A stretch of 64,000 bases of DNA from a phage, in the sequence record PV467748.1, one strand, 5' to 3'. Every line of letters begins with the position of its first letter. Position 1 is the first letter of the stretch. A program made the translations under genes and the position numbers. A model generated the notes under the pieces. That model saw only the letters and a list, made by a program, of their open reading frames with translations, did not search any database and was not told where the DNA came from. This document shows positions 14,135 to 18,017 of the stretch, one piece after another.

Positions 14135-14368
14135 TTAAACTACTGGGGTTGGCGTGAACATTGCTGCGTTCTTAGTTCGCCAATCGGCTGCATCAGTCAC
14201 TACAGTAGTATAGGCTGCAACGGCCGAAGGGAAAGTCTGATAATGAGAGTCTGCAATACGGTGCTCGTTTGAATAAATCTCAAACGGGACCGAAACCTCA
14301 GTACCTTTAACTTCTTTACCTTCACCAGCTGGATGTGTAAAGGTTTTGATATTAACGAAACCACCCAT
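14135..14368 (-). CDS. soc: small outer capsid protein Soc
   Basis: GFVNIKTF...HYQTFPS..AAY matches remembered T4 Soc; 77 aa. Confidence 0.8.
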   Translation of the reverse strand: MGGFVNIKTFTHPAGEGKEVKGTEVSVPFEIYSNEHRIADSHYQTFPSAVAAYTTVVTDAADWRTKNAAMFTPTPVV

Positions 14369-14397: not shown

Positions 14398-14410
14398 TGT
14401 ATTTATAACT
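14398..14410 (-). promoter_or_regulatory. late promoter (TATAAATA) for soc
   Basis: plus tatttata at 14400-14407, ~32 nt upstream of the soc ATG; soc is a late gene in T4. Confidence 0.55.
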
Positions 14411-14413
14411 TAA

Positions 14414-14929
14414 TTAATAGCCATTATCCTGACGCTCAAAGTTAGCTTTATTTTTCAGATAATAAAGTTTGAACAATTCTTCAGCGGACATATTAAGGCC
14501 GATAGCCATGTTTAATACAAAATGGATTATATCCACAAGTTCAAATTTAATTTCAAGCTGGTCTTCAGGAGACATTTCTGAAATAGGTTTAGCTTGTGCT
14601 TCTTGATAACGAGCTTTCCATTTTTTCCAGACGGCAGATGCATCTTTTTCACCTTTAGACATTTCACCAAGTGAAGTTAAAAGTTCACGGAATTCATCAT
14701 CAATACAGTCTTTCTGCTCACGCATCCAGGCAACAACATCGCCTGCAGTGGCCAGTTTATCCGGGTGGTAACAATAATCGCGGTCATTAGCCAGACGAAC
14801 CTGCAATGATTTCTGCATATCAAGCATAACTTGCAGTGGGTCGGTGCCTTTGATAATTGCGTTATCATAAGCCAGAGCAGCTTTATCAACACCTGCAATA
14901 AGTTGTGAGCATTCGTTAAAGTGTGCCAT
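14414..14929 (-). CDS. 56: dCTP pyrophosphatase (dCTPase/dUTPase, MazG-like)
   Basis: position after soc and before primase; ATG at 14929 with SD AAGGAAAAA; track start is an upstream TTG. Confidence 0.65.
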   Translation of the reverse strand: MAHFNECSQLIAGVDKAALAYDNAIIKGTDPLQVMLDMQKSLQVRLANDRDYCYHPDKLATAGDVVAWMREQKDCIDDEFRELLTSLGEMSKGEKDASAVWKKWKARYQEAQAKPISEMSPEDQLEIKFELVDIIHFVLNMAIGLNMSAEELFKLYYLKNKANFERQDNGY

Positions 14930-15019
14930 TATATTTTTCCTTTTCAATTCATTAGTAAGTTAGATAATTATAAACTGTTAGATTAAAGCGAATAAATATT
15001 AATTTAACAGGAGGATAAC

Positions 15020-15220
15020 ATGGGTAGTATTTTTTACCAAATCTGGAAATTGGCCGAAAAGAAAGACAAGAAAATGATGATAGGTTTTCTTGCGCTAGAC
15101 GTATTCCTTTGGAATCTTTTAGTAGTCCCTGTAGCCGCTAGCCAAGGGATAATTTTACCAGCGGTTACAATGGAACACGTATTAAGCATAATTGGATTCT
15201 TTAGCGGAGTTCCTGCCTAA
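15020..15220 (+). CDS. small hydrophobic protein (66 aa) on the opposite strand
   Basis: strong SD ACAGGAGGATAACATG; one predicted TM segment; convergent with gene 61. Confidence 0.35.
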   Translation: MGSIFYQIWKLAEKKDKKMMIGFLALDVFLWNLLVVPVAASQGIILPAVTMEHVLSIIGFFSGVPA

Positions 15221-16245
15221 ATTTTAGAATATTTTGAAAGTCTCATTTTTGCCATTAAACCTTGGGCTATATTAGCTTTCATATATGCCAGTACATCATT
15301 TATATCAGCTTTATCTTTCATAATCATATCATTTATATCTTTAGAAGGCCATGGAGCCTTGTCCCAGAATAGAACCCTTTCGCCAGCATCAACTAATCGT
15401 TGCATACGCTTAATTGTGTCAGGATGGCGGGGTTCATTGTCCATCACCCAGGCACGAGTTTCTTTACATGGAACCATAGCCAAGTCCAACGACCCGCCAG
15501 TAATTGCTATTGCATTCGGAACAAACAAAGAGTCAATAGGGCCTTCCATTACCCACACCAATTGACGTTCGTCAACTGTATCCATTCCATATATTTTTGT
15601 AGCTTGGTCATGAGCTTTTATTGTAATATATTTTTGTGGAGCGTCTTTACGTAAGGCTCGACCCTGAAAACTTTCAATTTGTTTATTCTTATTGAAAATA
15701 GGAATAACCAAACGAGGCTCAGGCCTTTCTTTAGAATAGGTCCCTGGATTGACAGAGTTCACCAATGCAGGCCATTCTTTAGTAAACCATAAGCGATTCC
15801 ATTTGTTTTCAGGAATGCAACGCATTGTCACATATTTGATAATAGGATGGTCCTTCGGCATTCTATCTAATCGTTCACAGAAATTAAGCTTTTCGATGAC
15901 AGGCATCTTAGCTTTAATTTTTTCAGATATCTCCACCTTAGGTGCAGCTTGTCTCCCGAACGATTGCTCTTTATGTTTCTCAAGAATATATTCTCGATAT
16001 AAATCCGGCTCATATTCGTATAGATACTTCTTAATTCCTGCTGAATAGTCGCAGTTAAAACAGTGCAGCATTACAGAGCCATCATTAGCCGGATAGGCCC
16101 AAAAACGAGCTTTGTTCTCATCTTTTTGGGAGTCGCCACATACACGACAACGACAGTTTAATTTAAAATCACTACCAGTTACTTGTCTGAATTTAGGTTG
16201 GTAATTCAAGGCACGTACAGCAAATTCTCTATCGACATATGACAT
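15217..16245 (-). CDS. 61: DNA primase
   Basis: 342 aa; zinc-ribbon CRCRVCGD...CFNC and TOPRIM-like core. Confidence 0.85.
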   Translation of the reverse strand: MSYVDREFAVRALNYQPKFRQVTGSDFKLNCRCRVCGDSQKDENKARFWAYPANDGSVMLHCFNCDYSAGIKKYLYEYEPDLYREYILEKHKEQSFGRQAAPKVEISEKIKAKMPVIEKLNFCERLDRMPKDHPIIKYVTMRCIPENKWNRLWFTKEWPALVNSVNPGTYSKERPEPRLVIPIFNKNKQIESFQGRALRKDAPQKYITIKAHDQATKIYGMDTVDERQLVWVMEGPIDSLFVPNAIAITGGSLDLAMVPCKETRAWVMDNEPRHPDTIKRMQRLVDAGERVLFWDKAPWPSKDINDMIMKDKADINDVLAYMKANIAQGLMAKMRLSKYSKI

Positions 16246-16850: not shown

Positions 16851-17291
16851 TTAACCTCGATTCATAAAGGCATTAAAAATCTGGTCGTCGATTGAATAAA
16901 CCGGAGCTTCCAGAATTTTCAACAGACTGTTTTTGATATACTTGCTAGGGATATCCATATTAACGAGGTCGTTCAATTCGTTGTCCGGGTGGATATCTTT
17001 AAATTCAAACCCATCAAACTCAACCTTGTCAGGAATACCATCGGCGAAAAAATAAACCAATTGGTGCATTGTATTGCATGAAAATAATTTAGACCTCACC
17101 GCAATAAGTTCTTGCCAATGGTTTAATTCTCTGTTAAGAAGTTTATGAGCCATTGTAATTCGATCATCGCTATCAACAAGAAAATAACCTAGGTATTGGT
17201 GGTCGTCGCTCCAAAACATCCTGTATGCTTGTGCATTTGGATTTTTACAACGAAGCTTTTTGATAACTAAATTCCTGTTAATCTTATTCAC
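16851..17291 (-). CDS. hypothetical protein (146 aa)
   Basis: ORF only. Confidence 0.45.
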   Translation of the reverse strand: MNKINRNLVIKKLRCKNPNAQAYRMFWSDDHQYLGYFLVDSDDRITMAHKLLNRELNHWQELIAVRSKLFSCNTMHQLVYFFADGIPDKVEFDGFEFKDIHPDNELNDLVNMDIPSKYIKNSLLKILEAPVYSIDDQIFNAFMNRG

Positions 17292-17577
17292 CTGTCACCT
17301 CTTTAACGATATTTTTGTTATCGAAATTAGCATCACAGTACAGAACATAGTTATACTGCATAACACCACTAGAAGCCAATTGGTCAGATACTTCTTTAAC
17401 CATATCAGGACGGTCGCGTTTAGTGATGTTCATGATATCAGCATAAATCTGATGCTCAACCGCTTCTTGATCGGCAGTCATAGACCATTCACAAAGGTCT
17501 TTATCCAATCCGGCAGTTACCGGAGCCGTGCCACATGATGCTACTGTAAGGATTGCTGCGATTAATAACTTTTTCAT
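17284..17577 (-). CDS. sp: Spackle periplasmic superinfection-exclusion protein
   Basis: 97 aa; signal peptide; DKDLCEWSMTADQ...VMQYNYVLYCD matches remembered T4 Sp. Confidence 0.85.
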   Translation of the reverse strand: MKKLLIAAILTVASCGTAPVTAGLDKDLCEWSMTADQEAVEHQIYADIMNITKRDRPDMVKEVSDQLASSGVMQYNYVLYCDANFDNKNIVKEVTGE

Positions 17578-17597: not shown

Positions 17598-17640
17598 ATA
17601 GGTCTATAGTATCACTACCATAGACTGATGTAAACTTTAT
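17598..17640 (-). promoter_or_regulatory. T4-type early promoter upstream of sp
   Basis: minus GTTTACATCAGTCTATGGTAGTGATACTATAGACC; SD GAGGAG before the sp ATG. Confidence 0.6.
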
Positions 17641-17876
17641 TTTAACGAATCTTCCAAATAAATTTTACGGAATTTACGTTTGGTCTGACGAATCTGACGC
17701 TTAGTAGGCTTCACAGGAAATTCGAAGAACTCTACATATTCCTGTTCGTAATCATTATGACCTACCGAAAGAACTAGTTCCCAGTTGTTTACATTTCGTT
17801 GGATAAACATCTTATGCTTACCAAAAGATTTATTCCAAAAAGAACTAGGAGTTGGCTTCATTAATACAATATTCAT
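17637..17876 (-). CDS. small basic protein with KPTKRQIRQTKRK motif (family member 2)
   Basis: motif shared with three other small ORFs. Confidence 0.45.
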   Translation of the reverse strand: MNIVLMKPTPSSFWNKSFGKHKMFIQRNVNNWELVLSVGHNDYEQEYVEFFEFPVKPTKRQIRQTKRKFRKIYLEDSLK

Positions 17877-18017
17877 TTATTCCTCGTCTTCATGTTTATG
17901 AGCAATTTCTTCGAATTCATGGTCACAATCTAAACAGGTTGCGTTGTCCCAAGCATCAAATACTGCCTGGTCTTCACATACCGAACAACCACATACTACA
18001 CATTCAACCTCTTCCAT
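17877..18017 (-). CDS. small Cys-rich protein (46 aa), not in the ORF track
   Basis: MEEVECVVCGCSVCEDQAVFDAWDNATCLDCDHEFEE...; TAAATG junctions on both sides; SD GAGGA. Confidence 0.35.
   Translation of the reverse strand: MEEVECVVCGCSVCEDQAVFDAWDNATCLDCDHEFEEIAHKHEDEE

Follow-up and report, generated by a model that had tools for sequence, protein, structure and literature searches.

The 64,000-nucleotide stretch of phage DNA in sequence record PV467748.1, referred to here as the window, comes from a JS98-type T4-like phage of the genus Dhakavirus. This study concerns a small open reading frame (ORF) on its plus strand, at positions 15020-15220, which lies between the dCTPase gene 56 and the primase gene 61 and encodes a protein of 66 amino acids (aa). 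The ORF belongs to a family conserved in T4-type phages, its product is a predicted membrane protein, and the 1.9 kb that surround it are 89-93% identical to phages AnYang, MX01, QL01 and JS98. The locus is composed as follows.

15020-15220, plus strand: small ORF with ATG, 66 codons and TAA; protein MGSIFYQIWKLAEKKDKKMMIGFLALDVFLWNLLVVPVAASQGIILPAVTMEHVLSIIGFFSGVPA
14991-14998, plus strand: late-promoter-like box AATAAATA (as the T4 late consensus TATAAATA, but A at -13), placed 21 nt ahead of the ATG
15009-15014, plus strand: Shine-Dalgarno (SD) sequence AGGAGG, with a spacer of 5 nt (ATAAC) to the ATG
15217-15220: convergent stop overlap CTAA, in which the ORF's TAA and the TAG that ends primase gene 61 have two bases in common
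14414-14935 (ATG) or 14947 (TTG), minus strand: dCTPase gene 56, the upstream neighbour
15217-16245, minus strand: primase gene 61, whose 3′ end converges with the small ORF over 4 nt

A first-pass annotation, made from the letters alone, had proposed a gene that converges with the primase gene and encodes a small membrane protein. This proposal is supported, as both the ORF and its frame are conserved under purifying selection. The start and stop codons stand where they had been read, the two flanking genes are those that had been named, and the ORF indeed ends within the primase stop codon. The strong SD is present as described, at a distance of 5 nt instead of the 6 nt that had been given. 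The product is hydrophobic, as claimed, from residue 19 on, with Kyte-Doolittle means over 15 residues reaching 2.07. The description of the ORF as the only plausible plus-strand gene agrees with a crude, non-exhaustive scan of the plus strand beyond the long minus-strand ORFs: among ORFs of 45 aa or more, no other one had an ATG together with a strong SD and a sequence resembling that of a protein.

Conservation and coding evidence

The plus frame is the sole one of the six reading frames that is open in all 17 orthologs, which represent at least eight genera. The window protein matches phrog_2024, a PHROG family of unknown function, with E=5.9e-28, in a full-length alignment that covers residues 1-64 of the protein and positions 1-64 of the 65 in the profile. 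Ratios of non-synonymous to synonymous substitution rates (dN/dS, Nei-Gojobori) range from 0.06 to 0.46 in seven unsaturated pairs within one or the other of two subtypes of the family, for example 0.06 for Kosakonia 305 and PEi26, 0.13 for the window and QL01, and 0.24 for VR7 and SP18 (subtype B); in three cross-subtype pairs they range from 0.56 to 0.68. For the window and Klebsiella phage kv_tblp2, the proportions of synonymous (pS) and non-synonymous (pN) differences are 0.78 and 0.15. Variable sites at the first, second and third codon positions number 36/19/56 in subtype A and 38/20/50 in subtype B. Judged by these figures, selection on the small ORF is purifying. Because a single frame is open in all orthologs, dN/dS is below 1 and the phrog_2024 profile is matched, the sequence at 15020-15220 is a real protein-coding gene of the Tevenvirinae, with hardly any room for doubt. 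A chance ORF in an AT-rich intergenic spacer, spread between genomes by gene callers, would account for its being uncalled in the original annotations of JS98, T4, T2 (LC348380), VR7 (second copy) and PEi26; such an origin is contradicted by conservation and selection, the open-frame and dN/dS results effectively refute it, and its probability is negligible.

A 51-aa ORF on the opposite strand (15034-15189, minus) was rejected as a true gene: it has no PHROG match, acquires 0-5 stops across the orthologs and is broken in most of them. It tends to stay open because it has its third codon positions in common with the plus frame. This shadow ORF is also present in VR7 (L005, 1518-1673); stops occur there in T4 and most others.

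The conservation of the ORF and its frame in related genomes, which the first-pass annotation had named as a check, extends from Dhakavirus to T4, Moonvirus and Kanagawavirus, SD and position included. Subtype A (MGSIFYQIWKL..., the window form) was found by tblastn in 134 phage records and subtype B (M..KL..AIKG.KKR..., the T4 form) in 716, among them VR7 ORF033w, which is annotated as similar to RB32 ORF030w. The members of phrog_2024, including these two and QL01 YP_009202759.1, have the same length (61-69 aa), position and strand as the window protein, and no feature distinguishes it from them. It is a new allele, 98.5% identical to the WG01 and LHE83 proteins and absent in its exact form from a collection of 15 billion proteins. 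The ORF is thus already known, as a PHROG family and as a 'hypothetical protein' in hundreds of genomes; in the literature searched, where nothing was found under 'ORF030w', the gap in the T4 reference, the conserved late box and a link to the Pfam family PF11351 through prophage intermediates appear to be new.

The position convergent with the primase 3′ end is kept in at least eight genera of the Tevenvirinae. The ORF adjoins this end at every inspected locus bar a few, namely VR7 and SP18, with a decaying second copy in between, and RZ, with a homing endonuclease in between. The stops overlap in T4 with the same layout (TTAA); in PM2 and Q7622 the overlap is 21-24 nt, and in Mexia an 18-nt gap is found. 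The upstream neighbour is gene 56 in the window, JS98 and QL01, a split NTP-pyrophosphohydrolase in kv_tblp2, hypothetical genes in Q7622, Moon and Kosakonia 305, an HNH endonuclease in Mexia, dam with another ORF in MX01, and dam in T4.

The T4 ortholog is intact, with 66 codons (NC_000866, 17738-17938, plus; L014, 3739-3939), and carries a GATAAATA box, AGGAGG and a stop that overlaps the gene 61 stop. In the T4 reference, nothing is annotated in the 309-bp gap between dam and gene 61 (17626-17934). Newer T4-type records call the ortholog 'hypothetical protein', and the exact T4-reference protein is recorded from read-archive assemblies only. In T4_ev240 (LR597657.1; L110, 628-753), a laboratory-evolved T-even phage, the ortholog has lost one nucleotide of an A-run near codon 16, so that its frame shifts. 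The change is either a natural knock-out, which would imply that the phage can do without the gene in the laboratory, or a sequencing error in the homopolymer.

Some phages have both subtypes. In gapriverviruses, subtype B comes first and subtype A second. The C-terminus of copy A is frameshifted in VR7 (L005, 1295-1770), copy A lacks its N-terminal half in SP18 (L008, 1311-1620), and in RZ (L016, 1249-1626) it is partial, with a homing endonuclease inserted beside it. NC-G, a Dhakavirus (L015, 1306-1698), has the reversed order A-B, with copy A frameshift-truncated after 25 codons and copy B intact. VR25 and VR26 apparently keep both copies. The repeated decay of one copy where the other is present argues that subtypes A and B are interchangeable, functionally equivalent proteins, and this decay, together with the homing endonucleases around the locus, suggests frequent replacement of subtypes by recombination. 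Homing endonucleases of several types (segF, HNH, GIY-YIG, mobE-like) flank the locus in VR7, Mexia, Kosakonia 305, PEi26, RZ and AnYang, which makes it a recombination hot spot. In MX01 (L017, 1070-2409), gene 56 and the small gene are separated by an insertion of dam and a 186-aa ORF, which joins exactly at the late box; T4 has dam at the same place (L014, 2847-3626). The 141-kb record of DCP80 (PQ671644.1; L024, 17620-30129), classed as Gaprivervirus, contains three places matching the window protein as well as a siphophage-type module (endonuclease VII, 183-aa and 99-aa proteins, endolysin), and may be a mixed or chimeric assembly.

Signals for late expression

The sequence that the first-pass annotation had pointed out upstream of the ORF, AATAAATA, turns out to be the commonest variant of the T4 late promoter. 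Its counterpart, NATAAATA, is kept 20-29 nt before the ATG in 13 of the 15 orthologs, on a background of 2.2e-4 occurrences of ATAAATA per base per strand in these loci, or about 0.01 per 45 nt. The box takes the following forms.

TATAAATA: MX01, kv_tblp2, Q7622, Kosakonia 305
AATAAATA: window, JS98
GATAAATA: T4, PM2
CATAAATA: VR7, SP18, RZ, PEi26, Mexia

Moon has ATTAAATA. In NC-G, a CATAAATA box and AGGAGG stand ahead of the decayed first copy. In MX01, the box marks the exact point where similarity to the window sets in; the DNA upstream of it is unrelated. The SD is similarly conserved, with AGGAGG, GGAGG or AGGAG just before the ATG in 14 of 15 orthologs and GGAG in the type B copy of NC-G. 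No second plus-strand copy of AATAAATA occurs within the 64-kb window.

Among 50 listed T4 late sites, the consensus TATAAATA is perfect in 32 and has A at -13 in 9, most of the rest differing by other single changes, and late transcripts are of either polarity (PMC2988020). The known late gene soc (14135-14368, minus), which encodes the small outer capsid protein and lies on the early strand within the early region, provides an internal positive control for the motif, with a perfect TATAAATA at 14400-14407 (minus), 31 nt upstream. T4 late promoters consist of a box of the TATAAATA type some 6-8 bp ahead of the transcription start and have no -35 element; the AATAAATA at 14991-14998 agrees with this description. 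Given the conservation of this late-type box, the small gene is probably transcribed late and in a gp55-dependent manner.

Neither strand of the ORF region contains a terminator-like site, and no stable RNA structure follows the ORF on its 3′ side (fold against shuffles, z = +1.0), so that a late transcript should run antisense into gene 61. Rfam gives no match above threshold at the locus, and inverted repeats are absent from it; one weak 21-nt direct repeat is present. The late promoter itself, rather than the protein, might be what matters: antisense RNA acting against read-through from gene 61 to gene 56 would shut off the early genes late in infection, and the ORF would be incidental. The overlapping stops, the lack of a terminator or stable structure and the near-invariant linkage to the primase 3′ end fit this idea, as does the transcription of both T4 strands, at different times, which is known from several sites (PMC2988020). 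An incidental ORF, however, would not keep its frame, a strong SD, a similar length and a low dN/dS, nor would invariant residues be retained across proteins that are 20-30% identical; moreover, relatives of the protein occur in unrelated phages with no primase nearby. Antisense silencing as the sole function has therefore a slight probability, and an antisense side-effect on the primase gene, additional to the protein, is possible.

A predicted membrane hairpin probably related to PF11351

Residues 10-18 of the window protein are basic, and the sequence is hydrophobic from residue 19 to the end. AlphaFold2, with an alignment of 41 sequences, predicts three helices with a mean predicted local distance difference test (pLDDT) of 70, and 78-83 across residues 21-50. 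The following parts can be delimited on the plus strand.

Residues 3-15 (15026-15064): basic amphipathic helix, pLDDT about 57-59, predicted cytoplasmic
Residues 17-41 (15068-15142): predicted first hydrophobic (transmembrane) helix, pLDDT 78-83
W31-N32 (15110-15115): invariant pair within the first hydrophobic helix, with invariant P37 and near-invariant A39
Residues 42-50 (15143-15169): predicted turn (coil in the model), with near-invariant G43 and L46-P47
Residues 51-62 (15170-15205): predicted second, short hydrophobic helix, with conserved acidic E52

In ten orthologs with identities down to 20%, M1, W31, N32, P37, A39, G43, P47 and G63 are invariant; L46, V49 and E52 (E or D at this position) are at least 90% conserved in ten diverse orthologs. 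W31, N32 and P37 remain invariant across all 41 sequences. A stretch rich in K and R precedes the hydrophobic core in all family members, and by the positive-inside rule the N-terminus should be cytoplasmic. A tight two-helix membrane hairpin with both termini inside (N-in/C-in) is the probable arrangement. A dual-start motif at Met19/Met20 was rejected, as these residues are not conserved. A fold search against viral structures returned the family itself and non-significant helical proteins only, a helical model of 66 residues being uninformative.

The N-terminal 41 residues might instead form a cleavable signal peptide, from which signal peptidase I, cutting after A-x-(S/T/A), would free a hydrophobic peptide of about 25 residues to the periplasm or the outer leaflet. 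In T4-type proteins, a basic n-region is followed by a hydrophobic core; position -5 is P, position -3 is almost invariably A and position -1 is S, T or A, with candidate cleavage motifs VAAS|QG, AIA|HG, ALA|HG and ALA|YG. The core of about 20 residues, however, has the length of a transmembrane segment and not that of a signal peptide, distant relatives break the -3/-1 rule with L, M or W at -1, and the same segment is an internal helix in PF11351 proteins. Cleavage is accordingly quite improbable, and the hairpin topology is retained in what follows.

The window protein has no match in Pfam at E≤10 and gives noise only in NCBIfam. A profile of 41 T4-type sequences, compared with 1.84 billion representative proteins, retrieves no more than 22 clusters at E≤0.001, of which the weaker ones (50-99 aa, E from 2e-8 to 7e-4) retain the core motifs. 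All 22 diverse relatives match phrog_2024, distant ones doing so in return at 5.8e-11 and 7.8e-8. A homolog search with the single query P0126 gave close relatives only, without PF11351 members.

These relatives occur in prophages and in siphophage-like contigs. In the latter (L021-L023), an operon is formed by the 82-aa relative, proteins of 180 aa and 109 aa, and a T4-type lysozyme of 161 aa. Prophages with a relative are widespread in E. coli, Klebsiella, Serratia, Pectobacterium and Yersinia (L018, L025-L027); their gene order is tail tip, DUF8377, an 88-aa protein with transmembrane (TM) and coiled-coil segments, lysozyme, GIY-YIG endonuclease, 186-aa protein, 103-aa protein and the 96-aa relative. 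Megablast of prophage locus L018 against complete E. coli genomes gave no match. The enterobacterial relatives of 69-99 aa are always accompanied by two soluble proteins of about 180-192 aa and 103-117 aa (L021, 6001-7610; L019, 6001-7082; L018, 4191-6297; L025-L027, 6192-8291). Neither Pfam nor NCBIfam gives a match for this partner pair (about 180 and 105 aa), and a 179-aa partner weakly matches a 'minor tail protein' PHROG (7e-8). A T4-type lysozyme is found in three of the four arrangements of relatives, and the gene order differs with the type of phage.

Several comparisons connect the family with PF11351 (GTA_holin_3TM), to which Pfam assigns the holin of the Rhodobacter capsulatus gene transfer agent (GTA) and those of many marine phages. 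Distant relatives weakly match a 'holin' PHROG at 5e-4, and from one relative tblastn leads to two bona fide PF11351 proteins. Vibrio phage 1.293.O has an annotated holin that scores 78.8 bits against PF11351 (cut-off 24.8). Roseobacter phage CRP-125 gp44 scores 57.9 bits and is encoded between tail-fibre genes and maturase A, the place of the T7 holin gene 17.5. As no tested member of the family reaches the Pfam threshold, the link rests on profile-profile comparison (hhalign), for which an alignment of 40 PF11351-like sequences was built from viral contigs. The following probabilities and scores were obtained.

Ten genera (A1) against the 40-sequence alignment: 81%, score 33.5
T4-type only (A2) against the 40-sequence alignment: 79%, score 33.0
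T4-type only (A2) against the Vibrio phage 1.293.O holin: 91.9%, score 39.0
T4-type and relatives (A3) against the 40-sequence alignment: 95.6%, score 48.1
T4-type and relatives (A3) against the Vibrio phage holin: 95.0%, score 44.1
T4-type and relatives (A3) against CRP-125 gp44: 92.7%, score 38.9
Relatives only (A4) against the 40-sequence alignment: 95.9%, score 51.3

In controls, the highest scores among 60 column shuffles of the query were 16.8 (A2) and 20.0 (A3), and reversed queries scored 10.7. The aligned part is the C-terminal hydrophobic hairpin, at Pfam positions of about 66-116 out of 123. Both hairpins have the same ordered motifs, namely W-N-F, P-x-A, G-x-x-L-P, an acidic residue and L-G; insertions of variable length in PF11351 proteins fall exactly at the turn, as expected for a loop, and their last hydrophobic helix aligns with residues 51-62. 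PF11351 proteins measure about 120-170 aa, with a hydrophilic N-terminal region of about 65 residues and a charged C-terminal tail, whereas T4-type proteins of 61-69 aa have neither. Taken together, the sequence comparisons indicate that the T4-type hairpin is probably homologous to the C-terminal hairpin of PF11351 and of PF11351 ancestry. The T4-type protein would then be a minimised derivative that has lost the N-terminal region and the charged tail.

In viral contigs, 9 of the 10 tested neighbours of PF11351-like genes encode murein hydrolases (Peptidase_M15_3, Peptidase_M15_4, Hydrolase_2, Glyco_hydro_108). PF11351 genes thus adjoin murein hydrolases and the relatives adjoin lysozymes, whereas the T4-type gene does not adjoin the endolysin. 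A further difference from PF11351 is that the phages with T4-type proteins already possess another, well-characterised holin (T). In R. capsulatus, lysis and GTA release depend on the endolysin-holin locus rcc00555/rcc00556 (PMC5026251, PMC3423380); the Pfam name implies that rcc00556 is itself a PF11351 member. That PF11351 is a holin family is plausible.

Another holin has been placed in PF11351 by remote homology: Hays and Seed assigned TeaA of ICP1 to this family and showed its holin activity (PMC7182436). ICP1, a Vibrio cholerae phage whose holin is TeaA and whose antiholin is ArrA, displays T-even-like lysis inhibition. Its ORF136-139 (NC_015157; L111, 12541-14097) gave no Pfam match at E≤0.01 and no hhalign signal to the PF11351-like alignment or the T4-type profiles. 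As the PF11351 link was not reproduced for these ORFs, no inference is drawn from TeaA. ORF137 (182 aa; TeaA is Gp137) is laid out like a PF11351 protein: its N-terminal region is hydrophilic, and a hydrophobic hairpin and a charged tail follow.

Possible roles at the inner membrane

The reading preferred here is that of a protein of holin ancestry, made late and placed in the inner membrane, which modulates lysis or membrane permeability; it is tentative and as a whole falls a little short of an even chance. Within it, an accessory or regulatory role in lysis, as co-holin, antiholin or timing factor, is a possibility suggested by the sequence relationships, with the balance tilted against it. 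RNA polymerase with gp55/gp33, activated by the gp45 clamp, would start a few bases after AATAAATA late in infection, and a short mRNA would yield a 66-residue inner-membrane protein. Its basic amphipathic N-terminal helix would lie in the cytoplasm and be followed by a tight hydrophobic hairpin of two helices (N-in, C-in), with the conserved W-N, P-x-A, G-x-x-L-P and E grouped around the periplasmic turn. In the least secure step, the protein would oligomerise in the cytoplasmic membrane late in infection. It would then modulate permeabilisation or the timing of lysis alongside the T holin system, while the late transcript would also run antisense into the primase gene, perhaps with a secondary effect.

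A number of points weigh against this proposal. At the sequence level, the best relatives in the family reach 14-15 bits against PF11351 (E 0.03-0.07), under the threshold of 24.8, in alignments that are colinear; the T4-type proteins by themselves (A2) align weakly with CRP-125 gp44 (34.5%, score 25.1). The structural model is of moderate confidence (mean pLDDT 70), its second helix is short (12 residues) and contains acidic residues, and a single-pass topology with a short periplasmic tail could also be accommodated. The C-terminus, GFFSGVPA, is uncharged and the charged segment is N-terminal, the reverse of the charged tail general to holins. The gene is distant from the endolysin and holin genes, its neighbours being those of dCTPase and primase and not a lysis cassette. 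In prophages, the context is no textbook lysis cassette either, the functions of the partners are unassigned and one of them resembles a minor tail protein. In the literature searched on T4 ribosome profiling, small ORFs and transcription-start maps, no transcript, protein or phenotype data for the gene were found, and a DksA RNA-seq paper does not mention the locus. Finally, T4 defective in t does not lyse and keeps accumulating phage, so that the small protein can be neither a self-sufficient holin nor a depolariser.

The small protein is not an autonomous holin, because it has no charged C-terminal tail, its gene has no link to e or t, and T4 t mutants do not lyse. Class II holins or pinholins such as S21 of phage 21 (68/71 aa, two TM domains, N-in/C-in) resemble it in size, in the predicted hairpin and in the presumed late expression. 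In contrast to S21-type holins, it matches no Pfam holin family (E up to 10) and has neither a charged C-terminal tail, nor a conserved dual-start motif, nor a place in a lysis cassette.

Alternatively, the gene may encode a real late membrane protein with a role other than lysis, its holin-family likeness reflecting ancestry only. Superinfection exclusion or immunity late in infection, the countering of a membrane-based host defence and the anchoring of assembly at the inner membrane are the options. Such a role, unlikely by its own measure, is nearly as likely as the lysis role. It would agree with the separation of the gene from e, t, rI and the spanin genes, with its linkage, in every genus, to the primase 3′ end, and with the missing N-terminal region and charged tail of PF11351. 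Subtype replacement, homing endonucleases and insertions form a pattern typical of accessory arms-race genes; the prophage relatives, with their two soluble partners of unknown function, lie just past the tail-tip genes, a frequent site of exclusion genes. On the other hand, no similarity to known exclusion or defence proteins was detected (PADLOC finds nothing for T4-type proteins, nor do NCBIfam and Pfam). The T4 exclusion genes imm and sp are early genes, whereas a late-promoter box is found here, and the sole functional signal at the level of the family is its association with murein hydrolases and holins.

T4 Imm, Sp (spackle) and RI are likewise small phage proteins acting at the cell envelope. 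Their genes are on the early strand, however, and no homology links them to the window protein, which matches phrog_2024 only; RI and Sp have sizeable periplasmic domains, which the small protein lacks. Sp is encoded about 2 kb from the small gene (17284-17577, minus).

The most far-reaching version of the lysis proposal would be that all T-even-type phages, including T4, carry an unrecognised late membrane component of lysis or lysis inhibition, a minimised holin hairpin that tunes the firing of T or senses the state of the membrane, while its transcript silences the primase gene by antisense. This version is improbable; if true, it would add a new player, within a gap of the T4 annotation, to a very old model system. 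T4 is the reference for a very large group of phages, its lysis and lysis inhibition are a textbook model, and a conserved, apparently late membrane-protein gene sits in its unannotated 309-bp gap. Across several hundred phage genomes, a functional lead (holin ancestry) replaces the label 'hypothetical protein', and the family offers a concrete case of a holin hairpin minimised and relocated outside the lysis cassette. A role in lysis timing would be relevant to burst size and to the engineering of therapeutic T4-type phages; if no role in lysis exists, a correction of the reference annotation is still obtained, and holin-derived hairpins would be reusable for other membrane functions.

Two observations concern the upstream side of the locus. 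For gene 56, the start given by the ORF lister is the TTG at 14947 (177 aa), and the annotations of relatives begin with the ATG at 14935 (173 aa, MAHFNE...), an ATG that is preceded by an AAGGAAA of its own. On the minus strand near this gene, CGCTTTA (14990-14984), MotA-like by comparison with the consensus, is followed after an 11-nt spacer by TATAAT (14972-14967), making 14967-14990 a possible MotA-dependent middle promoter for gene 56. The MotA-like box directly adjoins the plus-strand AATAAATA, and the 84-nt spacer may thus hold a middle and a late promoter arranged back to back.

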